DNA of 64,000 nt from Eledone cirrhosa (Eukaryota): contig OZ024743.1 of the NCBI GenBank assembly GCA_964016885.1, positions 110,732,001 through 110,796,000 of the forward strand, read 5' to 3'. Below the pieces are notes generated by a model that searched no databases, was not told where the DNA came from, and worked only from the letters and a program-made list of their open reading frames with translations. The position numbers and the translations under genes are program-made. Shown here piece after piece: positions 641 to 60,655 of this stretch; the first letter of the stretch is position 1, and every line of letters begins with the position of its first letter.

Positions 641-790
641 AATTTTGAGTATATGTTGGTTGTATACCAACACCTTAGTATGCAGATAGGAGCACTCGAC
701 GAAATGCGTAGGTTGGTTTGGTTACTCCGGAGTAATGTAAAATAAAATAAAATAAATAAGTCAAATGTTTAAAATTTAGCTTCGTTTATT

Positions 791-845
791 ACTGCTATAT
801 ATATTTCGGTGACAACCATCTTTGGCCGTGCCCTCTTCAGGCAGT
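791..845 (-). ncRNA. Minimal type I hammerhead ribozyme
   Basis: Minus strand reads ACTGC CTGAAGA gggcacggccaaagatggttgtcacc GAAA TATATA TA GCAGT: helix I ACTGC/GCAGT, intact core, palindromic helix III. Confidence 0.8.
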
Positions 846-1796
846 CTGAATTAGTGTGGTAGAGACGAGTACACATGTTGTTGAGGTGTATAACTTTCTC
901 AATACTCTGATATACCCCGTTCCTGGTTGGTAGAGACGAGTACACATGTTGTTGAGGTGTATAACTTTCTCAATACTCTGATATGCCCCGTTCCTGGTTG
1001 GGTTTTTATTTCACTGAGGAACTGGAATCATGAATTTAAAGAAACGAATTTCAGCGTCAAATGGCCTCTTCTCCTCTCATTGGTCAGTTGTTAGAACATT
1101 CCTCAGTCAAAAGTCTATAGAAATTCGTTCTGAGGGAAGCCAATCTGTAGTTATTGTTCTTGTTATTGTTAGGTACATCTGACCGCTATTCTTGTGTTGG
1201 TAGTGGTGTTGTTGTTGGGGTCAGCTAAAAAAATATGATAAAGTGGTAGAAGGAATAACACGGTAAAGGAACAAAATAAAATAAAATAATCGAATAAAAT
1301 GTGTGTGTTTGTTATACCCATATCAATGTTATAAAGATGTGTGAGGTCAATCTTCCCATTGGTCCCATGGTTCTGCCATGTATATGAAGAAATAGAAGGC
1401 AATAAAATGAAGAAAACAGAAAATAAATAATAAATAGAGAGTAAATGAAAAGTTAATGAAAAAGTAATGAAAAAGTAATGAAAATGAATATGGGAAATGA
1501 AAAATGAAAATGAAAAGTGAAAAATAAAAATGAAGATTGAAATAAAATTAAATGTGTGTGTGCTAAAACCAATCTCAAGGTCAGAAATAAGTTGGTAAGA
1601 GGGGTAGAAGGAACAAGATGGTACAAGAATAAAACGAAATAGTATAATCAAATGTGTGTTTGTGTTATAACCAATCTGAACTTAAATATAAATATAAGGT
1701 GAAATAACAACCCAACCAGGAACTGGGCATATCAGAGTATTGGCAAAGTTATACACCTCAACACCATGTGTACTCGCCTCTACCACACTAATTCGG

Positions 1797-1851
1797 ACTG
1801 CCTGAAGATGTCACAGCCAAAGATGGCTGTCACCGAAATATATATAGCAGT
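1797..1851 (+). ncRNA. Minimal type I hammerhead ribozyme
   Basis: ACTGC CTGAAGA tgtcACAGCCA aaga TGGCTGTcacc GAAA TATATA TA GCAGT; helix I 5 bp, helix II core 7 bp. Confidence 0.8.
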
Positions 1852-2481: not shown

Positions 2482-2552
2482 AATAAACCTTTCAAGGATT
2501 TACACCAGCTCAGCCTCCTGTTATTTTATAATATATATATATATATATATTA

Positions 2553-3470
2553 AGAAAACCCACTGTACTAATAGGACATGTATCATATGTAAGGTAAAGC
2601 GCTGGATAAATTGTAAAACTAGAAACGTAGTCTATAGCATAAGATGTACAGAGGGTACTTGCAGAAACATGACAACAACATACATAGGCGAGACAGCTTG
2701 TAGCATAGGTGAAAGGATAGACCAACACTGTGGGAACTAAAAGGACGATAAAACGGTTCAGTACTATACGAACATACCAGACAACAACACGACGGTAACA
2801 TAGACAACATAGAAATTAGAATAATATCTAAAAATAGAAATGACCCAGCAGATAGGCAAATCAGAGAGGCCAGTGAAATAGAACTTAGAAGGCCAAGGCT
2901 AAACAGAAAAAAAATGAATGGAATAACATCAACACCCAAACAAACAACACTGACCTAAGAGAAGTATAAATAAATAAATAAATAAATAAATAGATAAATA
3001 AATAAATACATACAAAATCACAATAACAACAAACACATATAAACACACACTAGTAAAGATAGAATACATTAACCAATACACAGCCACCCAATCACGAACA
3101 CACATCAAACAAAACACTATACACACACGCAAACGCATGCGCAAAGAAGACAATAATAAAATAAACAAATAAATAAATATATAAACAGACTAAAAAAAGA
3201 TGGCATAGAAAATACAATGCAAATGGGAGGAAACAATAGCACCACTGACGATGTTGCAGATGTGCAACGAAAGAACTTTGATTAACTATATATATATGTG
3301 TTTGTGTCTATATTGTATCTGTATTTTTGACCGTTGGTCAGTCAATGGTAACATTGAGGACCGAATAAATTAGATTACCGATATAAAAGACGCAGAAGCG
3401 AAAACCAACCAAACAGTGAGTGTTTTGTGTTATTAATTCTGGCAATATTACACAAATATGACCCTCCCAT
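2553..3470 (+). mobile_element. 5'-truncated Penelope-like element: Cys linker + GIY-YIG endonuclease pseudogene + 3' pseudo-LTR
   Basis: Translation from 2612: CKTRNVVYSIRCTEGTCRNMTTTYIGETACSIGERIDQH, then after a stop/frameshift ...DRQIREASEIELRRPRLNRK. Upstream CTNRTCIIC linker is Neptune-like. Flanked by (TA)n on both sides. Confidence 0.88.
3241..3275 (+). ncRNA. Degenerate hammerhead motif
   Basis: CTGACGA t GTTGCA gatg TGCAAC GAAA; perfect helix II but helix I/III 3' strands not recoverable. Paralog at 20533-20565 has CTAACGA. Confidence 0.45.
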
Positions 3471-3474
3471 GTAT

Positions 3475-3545
<71 letters not shown>

Positions 3546-3579: not shown

Positions 3580-4444
<865 letters not shown>

Positions 4445-13556: not shown

Positions 13557-14963
13557 TTCACTAAGCTTCTTCTTCTTCTTCTTCTTCTTCTTCTTCTTCT
13601 TCTTCTTCTTCTTCTTCTTCTTCTTCTTCTTCTTCTTCTTCTTCTTCTTCTTCTTCTTCTTCTTCTTCTTCTTCTTCTTTTTCTTCTTCTTCTTGAGAGG
13701 GTCGTGGGACAAGAGTCCTGAAACGATCCTTCCAGCGGGCCCTGTCAGAAGCAACTGACTGCAACAGATACAAATGCATCCGCAAGCGAGACCAGTTGAT
13801 CTTATGAATGCTGTGCCTCTATCTTGCATGTGGCCTACCCATAGGCTTCCTACCGGAGGAACGTCCAGTAATATCTGTCCAGCGATCATTTTCTGATAGA
13901 TTCTAACCCCATGTCAATATTATCAGAGCTTCGATATCCCAATTCGGAGATGTATCGGCTGTAACTGGCGTGAGTCTCTGATCACCGAGTTACGCACTTT
14001 ATCGAATAACGTTACACCAAAGACCCTTTGAAGGCACCCCATTTCGGCCGCTTCTATTCGCAATCGTATTATTTCGGCCATTACTCAAGATTCATGACCA
14101 TAGTTAAGGGTTGGCCCGAATACCGAATTGAAAACAGCGAAGTGGGCTTTTACGTGTGCCACCCTTCTGATTAGGTAATGTTGAAGATTTTACAATTCCT
14201 ACATTTAATTCAGCCTCCTTTAATCAATCACCCGTGAATACGGCCCGAGATACATGACATGCTATACTTGCTTCAGTGGACACGTTTCCTTGAGAAGACG
14301 AGCGTCTCAGTGTCCACAGAACTAATTTAAATAAAGAGAGACGAGTAAGATTGTTCCAATTAAAGTTGGATATCCTTGCTAAGCCTCCCCGGTAAAATAT
14401 ATTTTAAGTGTCTAGCAAAAATCATGCAGGGAGGTTTCGAGTCCAAGCTAGTTAAGGAACAGTGTAGGTATTCGCCTCGAACGCAGCAAAGACTACAAAA
14501 TATTCACTCTGTGGCATGTATTCGAGACGTCATGGGATTATTACCAACAGGTATATTCTTTTTTTGCTGACCTTTAAAAGGCATATGACCGCGTTACTCG
14601 GGACATGCTGTGCATGGTTGTCCAGGAGTATGGGATCGATGGTCAGCCTTTTGCTGCCCTGATGTCTCTGCATGAATGCCCTTGTAATTTTTTTCGGATA
14701 AATTGGGTTAAAATCGAATCGATTAAATGTGGGATTCGGAACCCCCAAGTATGCGTACTTTCACCTCTCCTGTTCTTTATTTATACGAACACATTTGACA
14801 TGCGCCGCCGGGTTGTAATTGGTATCATGACTCTCGGGTATAAAATAAGTTGGCTGGAATTTCAAAATTACATGGTGTTACTTAACTCGACTGCTGGTGA
14901 TATCTGACTTGCACTCGATGCGTTTAATGCCGAGTGCTGCATGGCTCAAATGAAATTCACTAA
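13557..14963 (-). mobile_element. RTE-clade (Expander/Rex3-like) LINE insertion with (GAA)n tail and inverted 5' segment
   Basis: Minus 14312-13696: TETLVFSRK...PTLNYGHES*VMAEIIRLRIEAAEMG...ASDRARWKDRFRTLVPRP, then (GAA)n 13566-13695. Plus 14350-14960: LLSLPGKIY...AYDRVTRDML..QEYGIDG...CVLSPLLFFIY...LDAFNAECCMAQMKF. Candidate TSD TTCACTAA at 13557-13564 and 14956-14963. Confidence 0.85.
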
Positions 14964-16160
14964 TTTAAATAATATAACTTTGACCAACACTGAACATGGT
15001 TATCAATATGCCAACGATGAAGCATTTGTATTTGTTTGCCCTATATACAGGAAATATAAACCGAATATCATTCAATTCAAATACATCGCTCTCAAGAATG
15101 TAAACATATTTCACGATATAGTTATAGATACCACAATAACAGACAGATGTTGATTAAATTACTTTTGGCCATATGCCTGATCAAATAAATCTAAACAGAA
15201 GCTAAACGACGATCTAGTTGTTGCTGGTAACAATAAGTTTGATACTGATGCATATACACCATGAAATTAAATTAACACATATCGTGATAGAAAAGAGTAT
15301 AAATGTGTCTCATTAGATTATTAAGCTGATAGTGTATAATAAAAAAACAACTAAAACTAAATATGAAATACTATAGCCTTAGTTACGCTATAGTTCACAA
15401 AACCAGACTGAATATTGCGATGATTATTTCATTCCATCAATAATTGTTGATATAATTGGAAATAATATGAATCAAATTTAACTCTCCCTCTTGACTTAAC
15501 AGCAGAACAAGGCTACTTTATGATGAATTCAGCAATAGAAGCTAAGCGATTAAATGTTATCAATACGATATTTATTCTTTAGTCTCCTTTGACGAAGGCA
15601 ACGGATTGACAGTAACGTTAGGGCAAAATATTAAACCTGATTTGATATTTGTTCCCACTCATCGGCCTCTGATTTCATATCACTGTTTCCTGTCATCCTT
15701 TTGAGGTCGATAGTACCAGACATTCCTTTGTGTTAGTTCTCTATTTCTCTGAATGGAATTTGCTATTTTCCTATATAGAGAGGAATTTTCACTGCAAGGT
15801 TTAAGATATCCAGGACTCGTCATGTATCTGGATGGTACACAAAAAAGTACCATGAAACATATTTTATACATTTTGTTCCACGTTGAGGATTTTAATTCAC
15901 GTGTGTATCATAATACTGACCGGTTAAATGCTTCGAATAGGAACTGAATTAATAAAATTATAAAACGATGATTTAGACCAGTGCTTCTCAACCTTTTTCA
16001 GCCCATGGACCAATTTTCCTCAAAATATTCCAATGGACCACTCTTACTTTTACTTTTAAGCTGTTCCATGTTCACACTAAAATACTTAATGAAAAGACAA
16101 AATAGTCTATTTACACTTTAAAATTTATTTTAGTAAACAAGGATAAACAAAGGATATCAA

Positions 16161-16353
16161 AATCAATGTTGATGAAGTCATTCAGTTTTATATCATTCAG
16201 CTAGTGACTACCTTGTCTTTGGTGTTTCTGACACAATATATCATAATCAATTTTGATGAAGTCATTCACTTGTATATCATTCAGCTAGTGACTACCTTGA
16301 TCATGGAGTTCCTGACACAAGATATCATAATCAATTTTGATGAAGTTATTCAG
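16161..16353. repeat. 84-bp tandem repeat (~2.3 copies) spanning the transposase stop codon
   Basis: CTAGTGACTACCTTG at 16201 and 16285; AATCAAT(G/T)TTGATGAAGT three times. Confidence 0.9.
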
Positions 16354-18076
16354 TCTTAGTCTGATAGTTCCTCTGCTGTTGAGATATAATTTATTTATTT
16401 TTATACAGAAAACATTCACAGCAGCTGAAAATCCAGATTCCACCATCCAAGTGGTAGGGAAAGAGATAATGCTTGCCTCTACATGTTGAAAAATACTTGG
16501 GTGTGAGTCCTTTATCGATATGTAGACAAAGACACCTTCTTTGTCAGTTCTTTTTCTCAGTTTTTCATTCTCTTTCAAGTCCAACAATATTTCAGCGAAC
16601 TCAACATTTTCATCTCTTGGCTCATAAATTTCTAGATCTACAAACCAGAGTGGGTAATCCATCTTTAATAGATCAGTGAATCTTTTCTCAAAGTCTACAC
16701 GAAGACCTTCAAGAAGACTAATGCATGCAGCAATATATACTGATGTAAGAGTAGTGGTGTTGAAATGTTGAATTGATGCTAAATTTCTTTTCTTAAACTG
16801 TTTTTTCCCAAATTTCAATTTCCCCATATAGCCTCTTATCTTCTGAGCACAGATGACTAAATCTGATCTTCTTCCTTGTAGCTCCAAGTTAAGCAGATTC
16901 ACTGTTTCAAAAATATCACTCAGGTAGAATATATTTGAGTTAAACTCAGGAAGTCTTTCCAAAATTTCCTTAGCTGTATCAGCTTGCTTCTTGGAGTTAT
17001 AATGAGTCATTTGGGACTTGAACATGAGAAAGTTGATTAATGATTCCCACAAATTTACTAGTCTTTCAAGGCTCAGGCTTTTGACAACCATCTTACTTCT
17101 GTGTGAAGCAATAGTGTTTTAAAATTTTCATCTTCACAGAATTGCACAAAAAAATCTATTCTTCACCGAGTTTGATTTGACAAAGTTAATTGCATGTATG
17201 GCAATGTCGAGTGCTTCTTGCATGTCTCCTCCAATATTCATAGCAACCAAATGCTGTCTGTGGATAATGCAATGTATATAAAAGATGTGAGGATCAACTG
17301 ATTTCATTCTAGAAACAAAGCCTTTCACTTTTCCAGTCATGGCTGTAGATCCATCTGATGCAATGTTGATCAAATTAGTCAATGGAATATTTTTATCCTT
17401 AAAATACTGCATTACTTCATTGAATATATCTTCTCCATTAGTAGTTTCAGGCAAACTTTTAATGAATAACATTTCTTCCCCCATATATTCTTCATGGATG
17501 AATCTGACAAGGACCAGAAGGATAGCTTGGTTATGAATTGTGCTCTCATCAACCTGGATAGAAAACTTTGTCTTTTGCAGAATTTCCACCATCTTCTCCT
17601 CAACAAAATTAGACATTTCATTCTGTCTTCTTGCGATAGTGTCATTTGAAAGTGGAATTGTACTCAGGATAGATGCAGCATCTTTTACCAGAACCTCATT
17701 TGCACAAGCTATCATAGCAGGCTTGGCAAGCTTCTCACCATAAACCTGAGGTGTTGCAAACTTGGCAATCATTTCAGAGACCAAATAACTTGGTTTGAGT
17801 GTCTTTGCTTTTGCAATATTCGTCTTCTTTACAAAGTCGGATAGTTTCACTGGTTTTCTTTTATTTGTTATTCTCAAAATATTCCCTATCCTTACCAACA
17901 GATGAAGGATGCTTTGACTTCTGGTGCTGCTCCATCTTAACTTTCTTCATGGAATGATTTGTCAAGATGGCACCACATTCAAGACACATAGGTCTTGAGT
18001 CTACACATACAAAACCAAACATGATAACATCTGTCGAATTCCTCAGTTTTGCCTTTTTAGCAGTTGGTTCAGACAT
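16285..18076 (-). pseudogene. Buster-type hAT transposase (ZBED5/SCAND3-like), split by frameshifts
   Basis: ORFs 17861..18076 (BED finger CLEC...HQKSKH), 17134..17898 (QVDEST, ASDGS, CIIHR) and 16285..17091 (MVESGFS, dimerisation region) supply the DDE and CxxH motifs. Confidence 0.93.
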
Positions 18077-19679: not shown

Positions 19680-19728
19680 GCTACTACAGGACTAGTACTG
19701 TTTCATTCAGATGAAATCTTCAGGAAGC
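19680..19728 (-). ncRNA. Type I hammerhead ribozyme
   Basis: Minus strand GCTTC CTGAAGA tTTCA tc TGAAt GAAA CAG tACTAGTc CTG TA GTAGC; helix I 4/5, helix III CAG/CTG with palindromic ACTAGT loop. Confidence 0.65.
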
Positions 19729-20271: not shown

Positions 20272-20309
20272 TTTTGCGAGGTTTTTTAAATAAATAAAAT
20301 AAGATAAAT

Positions 20310-20730
20310 AAATAAATAAATAAATAAATACATACACAAGAACAATAACAACAAGCACATACACACACACTAGTCACCCATCACACAGCAAACATAACAC
20401 TATACACACACGCAAACGCATGCGCAAAGAAGACGAAATAAAATAAACAAACAAGCAAATAAATAAATAAATATATAGACAGACTGAATAAAAATGACGT
20501 GGACATACAACACAACAGGAGGAAAATATAACACCACTAACGATGTTGCAGATGTGCAACGAAAGATTTATGATAAACTATATATATGTGTTTGTGTCTA
20601 TATTGTATCTGTATTATTTTTGACCGTCGGTCAGTCAATGGCAACATTGAGGACCGAGTAAGTTAGATTACCGATATAAAAGAGAGCGAGAAGCGAAAAC
20701 CAACCAAACAGTGACTGTGTTCTGTTATAC
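20310..20730 (+). mobile_element. Solo PLE pseudo-LTR, paralog of ~3000-3430
   Basis: Shared CACACGCAAACGCATGCGCAAAGAAGAC, GATGTTGCAGATGTGCAACGAAAGA and GAAGCGAAAACCAACCAAACAGTGA. Confidence 0.88.
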
Positions 20731-20965
20731 ACACACGAAAAAACACATACACAACAAATATACACACACACGCATACACATACACACACATATATCTACA
20801 CATACACACGTGCGTATACACATATATATATGCACACATACATGTATGTATGTCTCTCGGTATAAACTATACTATACATACATATACATACATATGCACA
20901 CGCACAAACACATACATACACACATATATACATATATACATATACACACATACGCACACATATAC

Positions 20966-28293: not shown

Positions 28294-28599
28294 CAAAGGG
28301 ATATTTAATATGTTGGTAATTCAATAAATATATATATTTATAACCGATACGAAGCACTCTACAGATTTTTTCTGGAGTATAATATCAATAATGTTAATAA
28401 ATGTATGCTATTATATATATTTCAATGGTACCAAAACTTTGGTACGTTCGCATCAGATAAAATACAAAGTTTGTTTTATAAATATTGTCATGTCCAGGAA
28501 TCAGACCTTAACGGTTCAAGTTTTAGCAGGTAAAACTTGAACCGTTAAGGTCCCATTCCTGGATATGTCAATATTTATAAAACAAACTTTGTATTTTAT
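28291..28599 (-). mobile_element. PLE-like short element next to (TA)n with terminal fold-back (28457-28599)
   Basis: Near-perfect ~69-bp inverted arms around the loop GCAGG; outer end AAGCAAAGGGATATTTAAT recurs next to (TA)n at 48827; hammerhead inside. Confidence 0.75.
28408..28460 (-). ncRNA. Minimal type I hammerhead, core variant CTGATGC
   Basis: Minus strand TTAT CTGATGC gaacGTACCAAA gt TTTGGTACcatt GAAA TATATA TA ATAG. Confidence 0.65.
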
Positions 28600-34677: not shown

Positions 34678-36031
34678 ATGTTTACATATCGAGAGAGAGA
34701 AGGAAGGATAGGTGATATATGTAGTTATTTGCCAATAGCGAATGCAAAGGGTGCTCAATACTAGTGCCGGCAGTGTTAAATATTACAAGTGTCAATATCT
34801 AGTGTGCAAGAGAATTAGCAGAGCGTAAGCATGGGGAGATGTAAAATACAGGAGAACAAACCGTTAAAACATGTTTATTTAAGATAGCACCTACGTACCT
34901 TTCACCCGAATGGGCTTCTCAAGGGCATAAATAACTAAAAAGTGTTCCTTACATGACTCCGAATAGGTTTTTAGAGATAAATACACGTCAGAGTTCATTC
35001 TTCGTAAAAAAAATATATATATATGTGTGTGTGTGTGTGTGTATGTATGTGTGTGTGTGTGTGTGTGTGTATGTGGGTGGGTGGGATCTCCCACCTTTAC
35101 GAGCCACAGATCTGTAAAACCATATAATCTGGTCTTTAATCTGACCAGATGCCCCTCACACGATAAATCTAAATCGCCTCCACATCAAATCCATCATAGT
35201 ATAAATGCCTTAATCTAGAAAATCAACTTCTTTCGATCCACGTACGAATTTAAATCGCTAATTACCATTGCTAGCAAGATAACACATCCTGAATTCTCCA
35301 GCTTCCAGGCCTAAATAGCCAAACACCTGATAACAGAGACGTTTAGAAATATTCTCGCAAAATATAAGGCTTCTATTTCAAGCCTCCCGATGAAACAATC
35401 AAAGAAACATACATCAATTCAATAATGATAATCCTCATTCGAGAGAATGATTAAATATAATACTTCCAAATGCATACTGTCTAATTTGATCTTCATTTTG
35501 CATTCACTTAATATTACATGGATATGGTAACATTAATTTGAACTATTGAAATACTTTTGATGCCCCTGACGAATCTATGTTATTTTCATTTAATTTAATT
35601 AAAGCCTCCAATTAATAGCTTCCATGCATATAATTTGTTTTGATTATTGATTAGCAACATTCAATTTAGTTTTATTTCCAATCTAAAATTAATTATTTAT
35701 TGCTGACCATAAACTATACAAACGGGCTGAATTCAACATGAGAATCATAGTAGCGAATCCAAAACACATACACACGCAAACAAACACACATATACATATA
35801 GACACACACACACACCTACACACACACATACACATACATACACGCATACACACACATACACACATACAGACACCCAGACAGTCACACACACGCAGACATA
35901 TATAAATATATATATATATATAGATGCCTGTATTTATCTTATTCATAATAAATCATCAGATTTCGTTTGAATTAAACAGTTCTGGTCCTGTAGAGGTCAT
36001 TTCTGTATTAAACTTTATATATATATATATA

Positions 36032-38135
36032 TAACGGAGGAGTTGTGGTGAGGAACCAAATGGACCATAACGCAACAGAATACTCAATACTTAGGGTAGT
36101 AGAGTGGGTAATAAGAGAAAGTATGACCCCGAAGGCAGAGCTGAAGCCGTTTCGACGGCTATTTCTGGACTAAAGTGAGAGTTATTTTTTAGTCTGATAA
36201 ATAAATAGCCGAACTTTACAAGGGTACTTCCTTATACAGATTGTAGTTGTCAAGGGGATTGGTCAACTTTGTAGCGGACACAGAAAAGTATATCATGGCA
36301 GTGGGTTCGGTGTGGGGTGGCTGAACTTGCCTGTAGAACTATAGGGGAGTGGCTAGAGCCGGTCAAGTGTAGAAGGTGAAATATACACGGCAAATTCTAA
36401 GGAATGTGTATGAAAGTAGACCAGAGGAGGTTGGCGAAAAATTGTATATTTAAAATGTGGAGGAGGGACGTTATTATAAATCAAATGCGATTAGGGGACA
36501 AAGTAAAAAATATAATAAAAAAGGAATATAATAAAATATGAGAGAAAGATGTAACAGAAATAAGATTGGAAAGTGAGAAGTGAAATAAGGAGTCTAACAG
36601 AGTTGCTATATTTCGGCCAAAGCCACAGAATGAGTTGCTAGATGAGAAGAATTGAAACATTTAGAATTCAAAAGTAATACCACTTATCTGGGGTCTAACA
36701 CAGCTGCTAAGAATAGTTAGTATAGCGTAATCGGCGAATGCTATCTGTAAGTTACTGGGGTGGGGGTACTGAGACTAAAGAGGCCCAATGGGTTGCCTCG
36801 TGGTAGGTGAAAGGGCAACAAAACAATGAAACGAACGAGGTGGAAGTTCCGTGGTATAAAGAAGTGATAGGGGGAGACAAAGGGAAGACAAAAACACGGA
36901 GGAAAAGAAAAGCGGTACATCTACTTATATCAGTAGGGGTTTACCCTATCCTATTCGCCAAGTGGGGTGTTTCAGCCCTAGTCCACCCACCCGGATAGTT
37001 AGCGGGTTTGAGGGCGAGGTAAGTATTCCGCAATCTGTGTTTTCATGCAGTTACCAGTTCGTCTCTTTTGTTTAGGAGTTGATCCTTGGTAAACAGCATT
37101 TGTAATGTTTCTTTCGAGCATAAGTTACACGGACGGCGTCCTCCTGTGTAAGAGTTATCTCTGAACAGTAAGTTCCAAGTAAGATGCTAAGTTATATTAT
37201 CATCATGGAGGTCCCAGATATGGCCTGAAAGTGTGGTGGCGTATCACCGGACCGGGTTCCGGAACGTATGTTGGTGTTGGTAGAGCCGGGTCTTAAAGTC
37301 ACAGGCGGTTAACCCTCTACAAGCGGAGTAGCTTCCAGGAGGAAATATCCTTTTATCCAGCTTCCCTTGGCGTAAGGTGATCTTCCAGTGCAACGTGAGG
37401 ACGGACACCTCCAACAAAGATTATATAGGTTTAACCGCTTGTGAAGTTAAGACCCCGCTCTTCCAACACCGACATACGTTCCGGAACCCGGTCCGGCGTC
37501 ATGCCACCACACTTTCGAGCCATATCTAGGACCTCCATGCTAATAATATAACTTATCATCTTACTTGGAGCTTACTGTCCAGAGCTAACTCTTACACGGG
37601 AGGACGCCGTCCGTGTAACTTATGCTCGGAGGAAACATTACAAATGCTGTTTACGAAGGATCATCTCGTAAACAAAAAGACGAACTGGTAACTGCATGCA
37701 AACACAGATTGCGGAACACGTACCACGCCCTCAAACGCCCTAACGATCCGGGTTGCTAGACTAGGGCTGAAACACCCCACTTGCCGAATAGGATAGGGTA
37801 AACCCATACTGATATAGGTAGATATACCTCTTATTTTCGTCCATGTTTTCTTCTTCCCTTTATCTCACCTTATCACTTCTTTCTACCATCGAACTTCTTC
37901 CTCGTTCGTTTCTCTGCTTTTTTTCCCTTTCGCCTACCACGAGGCAGCCCATCGGGCCTCTTTAGCCTCAGTAACCCACCCCAGTAACTTACAGAAAGCA
38001 TTCGCCGATTACGCTATACTAACTATTCTTAGCAGCTGTGTTAGACCCCAGATAAGTGGTATTAATTTTTAAATCTAAATTTTTCAATTATTCTCATTTA
38101 GAAACTAATTTTGTGGCTTTGGCCGAAATATAGCA
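36032..38135. mobile_element. Penelope-like element as a large fold-back (arms ~36604-37315 and ~37428-38135)
   Basis: Plus 37375-37705: VIFQCNVRTDTSNKDYIGLTACEVK...ATTLSSHI*DL...RRPCNLCSEETLQML...VNKK, a GIY-YIG with CxxC tail; mirrored on the minus strand. The left arm continues to (TA)n at 36032. Confidence 0.92.
36124..36227 (-). ncRNA. Decayed hammerhead in PLE pseudo-LTR
   Basis: Long helix II (CGGCTATTT/AAATAGCCG), GAAA CGGC...GCCT TC GGGGT, but the core reads TTGTAAA rather than CTGANGA. Confidence 0.35.
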
Positions 38136-39870: not shown

Positions 39871-40191
39871 TCCGATGAGGACGACCAGTTCTCTTTTTCG
39901 TGTAGTGTTTTAGATGCTCAGAGATTGGGATTGCTCGAGTTGAAGGCTTTTTCCCACTTAAAAAACTGTCACAGTACAGTTATTTCTACAGTACTTGTGG
40001 CTGGCCGTAGCCTCATCGTGCCCCATTTTCTGTAATCCGACAAGCGATTGCAATACACTTATCAGAGTTTGAAACCATCCTGTATGTAGGTATTTTATAT
40101 TTTTACTTATCAAATGTATTATGACTAATTGAATTGTCAAAGAATATCGCAGCTCCAATGTTGAAGGTATGGAAGTCCATAGTGTCATAAC

Positions 40192-40295
40192 TGTTTCTAC
40201 TTTAGGCACAAGGCCAGCAATTACCCAGTGCATTACTGATACTTTATTTTATCGACCCCGTAAGGATGAAAGGCAAAGTCAATCTCGGCGGGATT
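40192..40295 (-). mobile_element. SINE (octopus-type), 3' half
   Basis: TTTAGGCACAAGGCCAGCAA...TTTATTTTATCGACCCCGTAAGGATGAAAGGCAAAGT is the reverse complement of 57900-58010. Confidence 0.85.
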
Positions 40296-40394
40296 GTCAT
40301 AACGTCACGTATTTTGACTAATTTATTACAAATATATACACTTATCTCTCAATTCCTTTCTTACTCTCTTATATGTATGTGTGTAGCTGTCTGT

Positions 40395-40999: not shown

Positions 41000-41185
41000 A
41001 TGATGCCCCATAAATCCATTAGTTCGGTACTACGACCTAACATGTACTTTATTTCATCGAGCACGGAAGGATGAAAGGCAAATTTGAACTCTGTTGCTTT
41101 TACACTCAGAATGAAAAGAGTGGTTTTCAATTCCTGAAACGGCAATTTGCCCGACACTCAAATATTTCTGCCAATCGGCCGCTCT
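41000..41185 (-). mobile_element. SINE, degenerate
   Basis: GTACTTTATTTCATCGAGCACGGAAGGATGAAAGGCAAATTTGAACTC core. Confidence 0.7.
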
Positions 41186-48098: not shown

Positions 48099-48556
48099 CC
48101 CATTATTTACTTCGCTGTCATTATTATTACCATTATTAGTGTATAATCATAATCACCTAAACAACACCAACCATATTATCGCCATCAATGTCTTCATTAT
48201 CAGTACCACGAACGCTATCATCACTTTATTATGTATCATCATCTCCATCATCATTATCCCCTTTATCGTTATCGCTGTGGATATTATCCCAGTTATGTAT
48301 GTTTTCTCCTTCTCATTTGCACGAACTGCAGAATAATTTTGTTTTGTTCTTTTTTCTATATTAATTTTCTTGATGCTATTTAGGTAATATTTGAATATTT
48401 CTATCTTATACTTATAATTGATTCTGATGGTGTTTAAGATTATAAAATGGTAAACGAAATTAATTAGGAAAATCAATCGTGGTTTATGAAAGTTAGAATG
48501 AATTAAAAAATCCGTATGTGTACTAAGAATTCATATACATATACATATATATATAA

Positions 48557-48959: not shown

Positions 48960-50063
48960 GATATGTTATATCTATACTCTAATATATTATCATGTATATA
49001 TATACACACACGCATGTGTGTGTGTATATATATACATATGTGGTTATGTGTCTTTCTCTGTGTGTGTGTGCAACAATCTAAGTTTAAACATTAAACAAGT
49101 AATACAGATACAAATATCGTATATTGTTGCTTATTACCAGTTATAATTGATATGCAATATTAAAGTTGAATGTACAATTTCTTTTCCGATGCAAAACTTT
49201 CGTTAACAATTTCATTTAAATATAATAAAATATAATAATCAATAGAAATGTACTAATCAATACAATAGTTCTGTATTTATTATTACAATTCCTATCTCAT
49301 TATTAAAGCACGCAAATATTTTCTTGATATCCTAACATTACATAATGTTAGTACGCCAATTTTATTTCAGATAGGATTGAAATTATGATGATTAAGCATG
49401 AATAAGATAATTATTAGCAAATACAAAAACAAACAATGTTTTTGCATTATTTTTCATGTTACATTATGTGGATACACCTAATTATTATTGTCCAGACTGT
49501 AAAATACTTACTTCATAAATAAAATGAAAAATGTATATGATAATAAATATTTATAGTATCTCAGATATCCAGCGGCTGACAATATATGAACGATTCCTTC
49601 TAAACCTAGTTGGTTGTTATTTAATTAACTACTCAGATTACAAAACAGAACCAGAATGCAGATGCAATACATAATTAATGTATATTTTATTTATATGTTC
49701 TCTTCACGTATTCATTGGAATTCGAAGAAAAGTGATTCAAGTTTGTTACACTTCTAATGGATTAATAATATGATGTTGTAGTGCGCTATATGGAAAGAAA
49801 TAACAACAGTGAAAACAATAATTTATTTTGCGCCCAAATATTATTTTGTCAACACATGCCGTTAATAAATGTTAACACTGATGGCTTTGGATTTAATTTA
49901 ATGGATAATTAATGACAACTGAAATATTATTTCAGTATTTTGTTAAAACTCACTCTTCAATTCTACAAAGCTTTATGACATTTTGAAAACATGTTCATAA
50001 TAACAAAATTAAGTGCTCTTCATTCAAGAAAGAAATTAGAATGACAAACGGGAGAGTGTCACC

Positions 50064-50798: not shown

Positions 50799-50861
50799 GT
50801 GTATATATATATATAACCACCAATTTCATCGTATCACGATTACACCTTCTCTATCATTAAT

Positions 50862-51043
50862 TCGCAGTATCGGTAGAGGGTCGGATGCCATACTTTGCAA
50901 CAAAGAGTTACGGTCCTTTATGGTCTGAGTTCAAATCCCACCGAGGTTAACTGTGCCTTTCGTCCTTACGGGGTCGATAAAATAAAGTACCAGTAATACA
51001 CTGAGATTATTGCTGGCCTTGTGCCAAAAGTAGACACAATTAT
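50862..51043 (+). mobile_element. SINE (octopus-type), near full length
   Basis: tRNA-like head with GAGTTCAAATCC B box, core GCCTTTCGTCCTTACGGGGTCGATAAAATAAAGTACCAG, tail TGCTGGCCTTGTGCC; close paralog at 57832-58012. Confidence 0.88.
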
Positions 51044-51174
51044 TACATCCTTCATCTAAGCCATGTCTTCCTTATATATACTGTGTCTGTAAACGTTAGT
51101 ATTTCTCTGGAACCAGGTGATAAACCTGCGGAACTCCAGGGTAACAGTACTCAATTATACTCTTAATAAAGATG

Positions 51175-51211
<37 letters not shown>

Positions 51212-51224
51212 ATATATATATATA

Positions 51225-51441
51225 TAACGAAGGAATTGTGGTATGGAACCAGATGGACCATAACACACCAGAGTACTCGATACCTTTGGTAGTAGAATGG
51301 GTAATATGAAAAGCGTCAAGACCTCGACGGGCCGTCGGGCTCTTGACAATTTTCCTATTACCCACTCTACTAACCAAAATATCAAGTACTCTGGTGCGTT
51401 ATGGTCCACCTGGTTGCTTAACACACTTCCTTCTTTATATA
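51225..51441. mobile_element. ~215-bp spacerless fold-back of a PLE terminus in (TA)n
   Basis: Arms pair to the apex CGACGG g CCGTCG; the left arm is homologous to 36032-36130 (GGAACCA.ATGGACCATAAC...GGTAGTAGA.TGGGTAATA). Confidence 0.85.
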
Positions 51442-51442
51442 T

Positions 51443-53222
51443 AAAGAACGAGGAATCAGTATTGCATCAAATCACACTTTAATAACATATTAAATATGTT
51501 TCTCCGTAGATCAGCTAAAGGCAATATCTGTTACAGATCGAAGCCGTCTCTGCATTCGAAAGGTCTTCAGATATGTCTTGCGTGTTCAAACATGTCAGCT
51601 GTTCTTTATCTGTAGTACATGTTACTATGAGCGCCTTAGAAGTTTTTTAGAGCAACACGTATTATTCATAGAGACAGACTCTAGCACAAGGACGGTGAAA
51701 TTCCTGGATGTAACCCTAGAGTTTCTCACAGGCATTCACCGGCCCTATAATGAGACTAACGAAAACTTACAATATGTAAGCAGACGTTCGAAAAATCCTA
51801 AGTCAGTAATCAACACTATAGTTAAGGGGGTTTCCAACCGTGTGTCTACCTGGTCGGCCGGCGCAGATGTGTTAAGCCAGTACGCCTAATATTATAAAGA
51901 GGCACTGGCTAGGACTGGTTATACAGAAGCCATAATATATACACCGGGCAAGGGCGGGTGAAACTGCGTGAATACACGGATAGCAATAATATAGTTATAA
52001 GCAGATACAATAACCGCGAACAGGCGCGAAATAATAAGCCCCGGAAAATAGATCAAAACAGGGATAATAGCATGACAGTCAAACAGATTCCGACGCCGAG
52101 AGACTCTAGGGCACATAACACACGGGAATAGAACCTCCATACCAGTACAACTAGGGATAAGAGAGATAGCGATAGCGATTGCATACGGACAACACACATT
52201 TTTGAACTACCTAGGGACACCACATTGGTCACTGACAAAGTTATATCACCGGCAACGTGGTCAGACAGTACGAACGGGAATGGTTTTAGGGCCATTAACA
52301 CTACGCATTATAATTCAGAAGTTGAAGACAGTAAATCTGACATATACGGTAAAACTAGGAATGGCGAGAACATGGGGTTGGAAAGATCGGATAAGCACGA
52401 CACGGGTAAACAACATGATTTTATACCTACTACAGACAGACAACACAATAGGACTAGATCTAGAAACATCAGGTGGTTCAATGCACCGTACTCGAATCAC
52501 GTGAGCACTAACATACCCGGCCTTTTTTAGGGCACTAGATGAGTGTTTCCCGGCCACACACAGGTACCACAGGCTATTCAATTGCCACACAGTGGAGTTC
52601 TCATTTTCTACTGAACCCAACAGGGGAGACTATATAGAGAAAACCAACTCTGTGAAGATGAGAAACTTCGAACTGCACCAACAAGAGACGAGGGGGTATT
52701 TCTGGAGTGACAGGGAGCACACTTAGGGACACGGCCAATACTTGCGGCACATACTCCACTGACAATCGACCCACAGTGTACCGGGAGCTCGACAACCAGG
52801 TGACACAAACAGTGAACGAGGCGGCCCAGTACGAGCGCAGATCGTCATGGAGGAGGTGAGGTGTGCGCCGAAACACCATCCCATCCCTAAGTAAATACCG
52901 AGCAATATGAAACCTGAATCTGTAACTGCCGCAATAGTACACGATACCCAATACAGGGGTACTGTCTAATGAAAGGCATCGTATATAAATGTGTGATTGA
53001 CACACACAACACAAAGCAGATGTACATCGGTGTAACATCCACGACGTGTAAATCGAGGATGTACAAATATACAAATTCTTTCAAGCACCGGGCTAGGAGG
53101 CACTCCACTAGATTGGCGGAATTAATCTGGAGCTTGAAATATAGTGGCACAATAAGAAAACTGGAGTACTATTCAATGTGCAAATGCATACTTCGCCGGT
53201 GAGAGACGGTGCAGACAATGTA
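51443..53222. mobile_element. Penelope-like element with inversion: 3' end on minus (51443-51695), thumb-to-GIY-YIG on plus (51690-53222)
   Basis: Plus: VKFLDVTL...HRPYNE..LQYVSRRS, RSRNIRWFNAPYSNHVSTNI, CNCR, KGIVYKC...MYIGVTSTTCKSR...STRLAELIWSLK, ending AGERRCRQC. Minus starts RPCARVCLYE*YVLL and has a decayed CTGAAGA motif at ~51564-51570. Confidence 0.88.
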
Positions 53223-56486: not shown

Positions 56487-57831
56487 TTTAGTTTTGGTGG
56501 GTGGTTGTCCAGGAATAATTTTATTTTTGAGCTTTCAAACAATTTACGAGTTATTGTTGTAAAACTGTCGTTACACAACGAAACTAACCAACAAATAAGA
56601 AACAAAAGAAATGAAACATATTTTATGACAATATATATCATTCGGAAAAGGAAAAAGAAATGTCAATATTCAGTCCATGATCATAAAGTTCATTAAAGAC
56701 TTCAACTAAATTAACGGAAAACTTAATTTGTCACCCTTTTCATCATCTTAGAATAAAGCATTTCTCTCCGTGCATATACGAAGCATATCACGAAGTTTGG
56801 CAATTGTTTTATTGCATTTCGCTTGTTGCTCGGTCTAGATCACCTTTACAAGCGGTAAATAAGCAAATAAATCAATTGTGTAATTGCATGAGGAATCGAT
56901 AGAGCAACTGATCTGGAGATTCAGGCGCTGCACTAAGGATTTTCGCATCACGTTCCATAATGCTTCTGGATTAGGGTCCTGTGCTAATTTGCATTTAAGC
57001 GACTTATTGATCGATGTGTTGATGTCGACGAAAATTTCGATTCAGGGATATCCCCTTTTCTATTATGTTAAAGAAAATCACAGTTAATCTTCATTGAATG
57101 TTTCTAGCATGTAAATAGAAATGAAAGCATACAAGTGGACAAGTTGAACATTTCTAACCGGACACGACAAAATAGTTTAATCTAGTAGAAACCAAGCGGA
57201 AATCTCCACAACGGCGAACAATTTCACTTGCATATCCTAGAGTTTACTTAGTTTCATGACTAAATTCAGATCCCTTACATTCCTTTTGTACGTATTTGTT
57301 TAGTGCTGATTCGGGTGCTATACGTTTTCTATTTTAAATCTGCTCCTGTTCACTTCGCATATTGAGTTCCAGCATTTTCACCCACTGAGTTTTCCAATTC
57401 AACCGACAGCAGCTCCTTTATCCCCCACAATACAATCTAGAAATCCTGTTTTGTAATGCACTGGTAAGAGAAACTCTCATATCTCTAAACCAGAACTTGT
57501 CTATTCAAGGAAAATATCATATTTGAAGGCATATTTTAAATAGAAAGTTTATTATTTCCCTTGATTTCAATTTTCACCTTCTTAATTCAGTTAGCTTTCA
57601 AATATATATAATATAATTTTTTCTACGTTAGGCACATAATGTAATATAATATAAACGTTTCACTGAAACTACTAAAATAATTATATATATTATCATGTTT
57701 TCTCTCTGGTTCAGTTGTAATCATTGATCTAATAAACATCAATAAAATCTATTTTCTGTTATTAGATGTTTACGTTTTCTTTCATCTATTTGTAAGTTTG
57801 TATGTCATAGTATGTCATTGAAGTGTCACTT

Positions 57832-58012
57832 TGGCAGTATCGGTAGAGGATTGGGCGCCATTCTTTGCAGCACAGTTACATCCATTTACGGACTGAGTTC
57901 AATTCCGCCGAGGTTAACTTTGCCTTTCATCCTTACGGGGCCGATGAAATAAAGTACCAGTTATACCCTCGGATAATTGCTGGCCTTGTGCCTAAACTAG
58001 AAACAATTATTT
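57832..58012 (+). mobile_element. SINE (octopus-type), near full length
   Basis: TGGCAGTATCGGTAGAG head, GAGTTCAATTCC B box, GCCTTTCATCCTTACGGGGCCGATGAAATAAAGTACCAG core. Confidence 0.88.
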
Positions 58013-60524: not shown

Positions 60525-60655
60525 GGCAGAAGCGCAACAGCTTTCTGGGCGTGGAATTCAATTAATTCTACTCCAATGCGTTACTGATTCTTTATTTTCT
60601 CGACCCAGTAAGGATGAAAGACAAAGCTTACATCAACAGGATTTGAAATCATATT
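60525..60655 (-). mobile_element. SINE fragment
   Basis: TTTATTTTCTCGACCCAGTAAGGATGAAAGACAAAG core. Confidence 0.7.

Follow-up and report, generated by a model that had tools for sequence, protein, structure and literature searches.

A twin-hammerhead insertion in Eledone cirrhosa as a probable decaying Penelope-like element

A stretch of 64,000 nucleotides from Eledone cirrhosa (assembly GCA_964016885.1, contig OZ024743.1, positions 110,732,001 to 110,796,000 of the forward strand), called the window here and numbered from its first letter, contains two type-I hammerhead motifs that point outward from an insertion of 1.2 kb. The arms in which they lie are very probably the pseudo-LTRs of one Penelope-like element (PLE) insertion, 5'-truncated or non-autonomous, the target of which was likely a (TA)n microsatellite and which has probably decayed from then on. 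The insertion is probably ordinary mobile-element debris rather than a new RNA switch, and the outward-facing layout of twin hammerheads is already in print for PLEs. The proposed attribution to PLEs is based on architecture and context, because no remnant of a reverse transcriptase (RT) or an endonuclease was found in 644-1908. As no open reading frame for an RT with a GIY-YIG endonuclease was found in this segment, the focal element is not classed as an autonomous PLE but as a likely derivative of one.

Anatomy of the insertion

Tandem Repeats Finder placed a (TA)n tract on either side of the insertion: one at 553-640 on the left, which is the likely insertion target, and one at 1908-1936 that adjoins the right arm and is followed by (TG)n. 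The left arm, on the minus strand, is 277 nt long (738-1014) and the right arm, on the plus strand, 206 nt (1699-1904). Using BLAST, they were found to match at 92.7 % identity over 738-930 and 1904-1712 and at 93.1 % over 928-1014 and 1785-1699. Included in the left arm is an internal duplication of 71 nt that the right arm does not share; its two head-to-tail copies (857-998) are 99 % identical and without a hammerhead, and it is likely younger than the divergence of the arms. Both arms are pseudo-LTR-like and show the same order, namely a leader of about 100 nt (in the left arm, lengthened by the duplication, about 170 nt), the hammerhead, AATAAA (1852-1857 in the right arm, directly 3' of the hammerhead), and about 50 nt more. 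The homology between them begins at a GT dinucleotide at the inner boundary of both copies. Inverted pseudo-LTRs of about 200 nt that hold a hammerhead, together with (TA)n on both sides, are features of PLEs.

The left arm is prolonged on one side by 94 nt (644-737, minus strand) that reach the (TA)n tract and contain a palindrome of 14 nt (722-735) as well as a terminal hairpin. This extension is a candidate for a Penelope-type "tail", albeit one of 94 nt against the 30-40 bp of published tails. Between the arms lies a spacer of 684 nt (1015-1698) that is purine-rich on the plus strand and has an internal direct repeat of 74 % identity (1219-1320 and 1579-1673).

No coding remnant was detected in the spacer or elsewhere in 644-1908 by a tblastn comparison with the remainder of the window, by Pfam scans of seven readings, or by an endonuclease HMM (see below) that is weak for other PLE clades, giving E values of 0.2 and 1.1 on the other two endonuclease remnants in the window. 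A search for a junction palindrome or a target-site duplication at the focal insertion was negative, and for none of arm, spacer, and extension was another copy found in the 64-kb window. Two candidates were rejected: the minus-strand spacer resembled an endonuclease C-terminus by eye, for which the HMM gave no backing, and a hammerhead-like word at 665-715 (plus strand) passed no scan.

The hammerhead motifs

Each motif is 55 nt long, the right one at 1797-1851 on the plus strand and the left one at 845-791 on the minus strand. The catalytic core CUGANGA ... GAAA ... UH is present in both, and the copies are identical in helix I, the CUGAAGA box, the GAAA box, and the helix III palindrome AUAUAUAU, an 8-nt sequence located at 1838-1845 in the right copy. 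They differ at 4 of the 55 positions (1809, 1811, 1815, and 1827 in the right copy), every one in the 26-nt segment of helix II. Two of these differences lead to G-U pairs, both in the left copy, while the other two each disrupt one basal pair of helix II, one per copy; a C-C mismatch is common to both. Two-sided, compensatory changes were seen in 0 of 18 pairs, a count from two sequences that cannot test covariation. In the left copy, helix II has a 2x2 internal loop in addition to the two G-U pairs, and the G10.1-C11.1 position is closed by G-C whichever register is used. The base of helix II is weakened in the right copy, where, according to the register, a U-C is either the closing pair or the one after it, and where an ATG at 1808 overlaps the start of the helix. 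Cuts are predicted after 796 in the left copy and after 1846, at an AUA triplet, in the right copy.

In these respects, the first-pass annotation of this DNA was confirmed: it had described two 55-nt copies at these positions with a shared core and helix III and a variable helix II, had read two of the differences as G-U pairs, and had predicted the plus-strand cut after 1846, with which the AUA triplet agrees. That the motifs are hammerheads, as it claimed, is borne out by a strict descriptor, which matched the focal pair alone in the 64 kb and had 0 matches in each of 20 shuffles. When one core mismatch was allowed with helix I kept strict, there were still two matches, against 0-1 in 10 shuffles. 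The focal motif is not explained by chance. An Rfam scan gave no match at the gathering threshold, and no hammerhead family was among the six matches obtained at E ≤ 10.

Other hammerheads, fold-backs, and endonuclease remnants in the window

The focal layout is a recurring local pattern. A second outward-facing twin is located some 600 nt away in the fold-back 2260-2533, the 110-nt arms of which are 90 % identical. Its hammerhead-like motifs (2424-2481 on the plus strand and 2369-2312 on the minus strand) have a different 8-nt palindromic helix III of their own, and the left copy carries an A9-to-G change in the catalytic core. A covariance model made from the two focal motifs had 12 matches at E ≤ 5, including both focal copies, and among the weaker ones were both arms of 2260-2533. 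The same model identified a third hammerhead (28461-28407, minus strand; E 2e-7) with the core CUGAUGC and the helix III of the focal pair. It lies directly downstream of a fold-back with 69-nt arms that does not include it (28407-28599 for the whole). Using a looser descriptor, which was tuned after the candidates had been seen, nine matches were obtained in 64 kb as compared to a mean of 0.35 (maximum 3) in 100 shuffles. Six of the nine are followed by a (TA)n tract within 80 nt, against a background of 5.6 %. With these nine matches in 64 kb, the genome is dense with hammerhead motifs that Rfam does not detect.

A hammerhead-like motif at 19680-19728 (minus strand), 32 nt from (TA)n, has a stable 4-bp helix III resembling that of Hydra-clade motifs. 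Another, at 3245-3278 (plus strand), ends a GIY-YIG remnant just before a short (TA)n. Weaker descriptor matches at 48424-48474 and 49878-49937 (plus strand) have a non-palindromic helix III and may be due to chance.

In five of eight fold-backs, one arm end is found within 10 nt of (TA)n, as is the case for 1.4 % of positions in general. The fold-back 36604-38135 is 1.5 kb long, with 719-nt arms at 89 % identity that each carry a broken Penelope-type endonuclease end, in a head-to-head arrangement. Both of its arms end in what seems to be a hammerhead reduced to its 3' half. In the fold-backs 74-467 (arms 77 % identical) and 3639-4325 (94 %), in neither of which a hammerhead was detected, one arm abuts (TA)n and the other is extended before the next microsatellite.

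A broken remnant at 2549-2928 (plus strand) is that of a GIY-YIG endonuclease: an exhaustive protein search returned 31 relatives at E ≤ 0.001, and the Pfam GIY-YIG domain was found in 6 of the 12 relatives scanned, in one of them above the curated cut-off. The endonuclease HMM was built from 28 of the 31 relatives, three long multi-stretch proteins being left out, and it also recovers the C-terminal part of the remnant in another frame (E 4e-11). An upstream cysteine pair makes the remnant Neptune-like in the terms of the description in PMC8557442. Word-indexed protein searches with the neighbouring endonuclease remnants gave no relatives, whereas the exhaustive search did find some. Neither GIY-YIG nor RT was matched in direct Pfam scans of window fragments (11 and 10 readings). 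The Atlas clusters close to two of the neighbouring remnants are eukaryotic; among the few with a recorded group, Mollusca or Chordata prevail, and the window itself is AT-rich, microsatellite-rich, animal-like DNA.

Several other repeats and frames were observed. A direct repeat of 580 nt (76 % identity) occupies 2967-3545, downstream of the endonuclease remnant, and 20287-20846. At 51219-53200 (plus strand), a short fold-back follows (TA)n and directly precedes a decayed ORF, the end of which is endonuclease-like (E 6e-7 against the remnant at 37.4 kb). The start of this ORF is one that we take to be RT-thumb-like; Pfam gave no match. An arm of this fold-back recurs at 36018-36119. Two adjacent open frames of 270-277 amino acids at 16285-17946 (minus strand) presumably represent a frameshifted hAT-type transposase, with no match in Pfam, and have a direct repeat of 115 nt (16154-16352) at their end. 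A short frame at 14578-14907 (plus strand) is presumably a fragment of a LINE reverse transcriptase. Dispersed repeats of 50-180 nt (40183-40296, 41038-41110, 50861-51047, 57831-58011, and 60573-60651) probably form a SINE family.

Proposed origin of the insertion

The geometry of the insertion matches that of published PLEs in its opposite-strand twin hammerheads, its inverted repeats with a one-sided extension, and its (TA)n flanks. An RT/GIY-YIG protein of a PLE, acting in trans, would have nicked the (TA)n tract, after which the 3' end of the element would have been copied twice, so that a truncated copy came to lie head-to-head with an inverted one, likewise truncated. Such copying would have put one outward-pointing hammerhead near each outer end, and the arms would then have drifted apart by about 7 %. 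The one-sided extension suggests that the minus-strand arm is the main copy. An inverted 5'-truncated PLE copy has been described to produce flanking inverted repeats and a one-sided tail, with (TA)n as target (PMC8557442). For inverted pseudo-LTRs of about 200 bp, of which the head-to-head form is the commonest, self-priming has been proposed (PMC3846280).

The hammerheads would have been inherited from the terminal repeat of the parent element. According to published work, PLE hammerheads cleave weakly, as dimers via a palindromic helix III or with the help of the protein of the element, and would probably serve to process tandem transcripts. The focal hammerheads most likely do nothing at this locus. 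From read-through RNA, a long hairpin would arise in which the ribozyme is unfolded, and small-RNA silencing would be a more likely outcome than a switch. siRNAs that match inverted regions of rearranged Penelope copies have been reported (PMC3681739).

Substitution pattern and alternative explanations

Substitutions were counted over the 193-nt ungapped inverted repeat, which has 14 differences in total. Hammerhead and flanks have diverged equally (4/55 vs 10/138, p = 1), while the core with helices I and III has none in 29 positions against 14 in the remaining 164 of the arm (Fisher p = 0.13, hypergeometric 0.094). The confinement of all four hammerhead differences to helix II has a p value of 0.044. 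In simulations, an invariant core with at least four changes in helix II, a pattern defined post hoc, had a probability of 0.015; this fell to 3e-4 when two G-U pairs were required as well and the upper 7-bp stem had to be intact, also post hoc and with the disrupted basal pairs left out of account. Pooling with the second twin pair (2260-2533) gave 1/56 in the core vs 24/247 in the rest (p = 0.059), which is a trend only. The contrast between an invariant core and a variable helix II, on which the first-pass annotation had built, is thus visible in the motifs but fails to reach significance when all 193 nt of the arm are counted. The hammerhead taken as a whole has changed as much as its flanks (p = 1), and the deficit in the core is non-significant (p = 0.09-0.13; 0.06 when pooled). 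Substitutions do lean away from the core, and therefore the ribozymes may be under some constraint.

This lean, with two of the helix II changes giving G-U pairs, is also what speaks for another reading: the whole 1.2-kb unit would be a mobile non-autonomous family carried by PLE enzymes, with both hammerheads functional, arms that diverged in the replicating lineage, and divergent spacer transcripts that could dimerise in trans. The words that adjoin the inner arm ends, which we take to be TATA-like and initiator-like, would suit it as well. The capture of unrelated DNA between pseudo-LTRs is known (PMC3846280). We nevertheless consider this reading improbable, as two of the four changes disrupt basal pairs of helix II and none is compensatory, the 71-nt duplication is private to one arm, the sister twin (2260-2533) has a core change, helix I has a probability of at most 0.1 in all six flanking contexts that were folded, and the 64 kb hold no second copy. 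It is quite improbable, too, that a compact non-coding retroelement moves as a unit with two outward hammerheads under selection, with divergent spacer transcripts that cleave as a trans dimer, read-through that silences both, and several such families in the genome. If true, a selected divergent-transcript unit of this kind would show that ribozymes of a retroelement can be controlled in a new way.

The long terminal inverted repeats, the non-coding interior, and the TA-rich flanks would also suit a MITE-like fold-back element of DNA type, or a local inverted duplication in which a hammerhead-bearing repeat was included by chance. Such an origin is nonetheless very unlikely, since the ends are asymmetric, with the 94-nt extension on one side, and hammerhead, AATAAA, and (TA)n succeed one another as they do at further hammerhead-like sites of the window; even then, the hammerhead would stem from a PLE.

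Folding and the switch model

Minimum-energy folds of both 55-mers contain helices I and II (z scores of -2.5 and -1.3). Formation of helix III as a monomer hairpin was calculated to cost +3.7 kcal/mol, against -3.2 kcal/mol for the intermolecular 8-bp duplex. These values fit the dimer requirement of hammerheads with a short palindromic helix III, which the first-pass annotation had invoked and which is published (results of PMC4209133; the dimer model is reviewed in PMC6765202). In a transcript that spans both arms, the predicted probability of helices I and II is 0.0. When the opposite arm is left out, helix II is regained in three of four contexts, while helix I stays at or below 0.1.

The same annotation had proposed a switch at this locus, in which pairing of the arms stops cleavage and a dimer arises in trans from sense and antisense transcripts; this is hardly credible. 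Its first half holds as physics, the fold-back being predicted to abolish helices I and II, but not as a mechanism, because a fold-back unfolds the ribozyme in any inverted repeat and the "off" state is generic. As to the second half, the palindromic helix III can pair intermolecularly, but a sense/antisense trans dimer is implausible because such RNAs would be paired arm to arm: they would fold back or anneal, and the predicted arm duplex (-284 kcal/mol) would outcompete an 8-bp AU helix of about -3 kcal/mol. Moreover, the antisense arm is transcribed ahead of the ribozyme on either strand, and PLE insertion commonly yields such a geometry, which recurs 600 nt away. Free ribozymes are to be had only in divergent transcripts that start in the spacer, and such transcripts are not antisense to each other. 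At the level of titles and abstracts, no published antisense switch of PLE hammerheads was found, which does not prove its absence. The simpler context that was overlooked is that of the inverted pseudo-LTRs of a Penelope-like insertion.

Read as such a decaying insertion, the focal element extends the set of Penelope-type hammerhead families by one and matters little as it stands. Inverted twins provide a useful natural test because both arms start out identical: arm-to-arm differences pooled over many loci would show whether the core is constrained after insertion.

Comparison with known systems

The comparisons that follow draw on excerpts of the cited papers; further background on PLEs is given in PMC8969392 and PMC544870. 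Hammerheads are located in the terminal repeats of PLEs, and the type-I motifs described there by Cervera and De la Pena (2014, PMC4209133) resemble the focal ones in the CUGANGA/GAAA core, the 5-bp helix I, the long helix II, the palindromic helix III (8-10 nt in their motifs), and the AU-rich flanks. Variants with a palindromic helix III were reported, as was a low activity even of dimers. Dual hammerheads on opposite strands, 100-700 bp apart, were also described, such opposite-strand twins being known in Schistosoma and in a truncated PLE that has a second, minimal hammerhead at its 5' end on the opposite strand. From the motifs of Aedes aegypti and Drosophila willistoni (Fig. S3 of the same paper), the focal pair differs in primary sequence and in a helix II of 11 positions with an internal loop. 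U-U closings occur in Hydra-clade motifs (supplement of PMC8557442), and a 16-nt stretch of the focal motif was absent from that supplement.

Two likenesses concern one copy each. In Poseidon of Anolis carolinensis, the ORF starts at stem II, cleavage is assisted by protein, and hammerhead cleavage is dispensable for insertion in vitro (PMC11167929); the right focal copy likewise has its ATG at the start of helix II, although no reading frame follows. In Penelope of Drosophila virilis, an intron ends at the 5' side of helix I (PMC4209133); an AG directly 5' of helix I is found in the left focal copy only. Both likenesses are treated here as leads.

The non-LTR retrozymes (bioRxiv 10.64898/2026.07.22.740005) are, like the focal insertion, non-coding and PLE-related with a type-I hammerhead. 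Their copies are arranged head-to-tail with a hammerhead per unit, whereas the focal copies are inverted and the sole tandem unit, of 71 nt, has no hammerhead; this assignment was rejected on these grounds.

The closest parallels in arrangement are with Pen2/Pen2a of Adineta vaga (PMC3846280) and the Hydra-clade Penelope-13_HM, the consensus of which has a hammerhead on each strand and (TA)n as target (supplement of PMC8557442). Whereas the focal insertion has no ORF remnant, no readable target-site duplication, and an extension of 94 rather than 30-40 nt, it shares with these elements the head-to-head inverted repeats of about 200 nt, the presence on each strand of a hammerhead some 100 nt from the outer end, the (TA)n flanks, and the one-sided extension.
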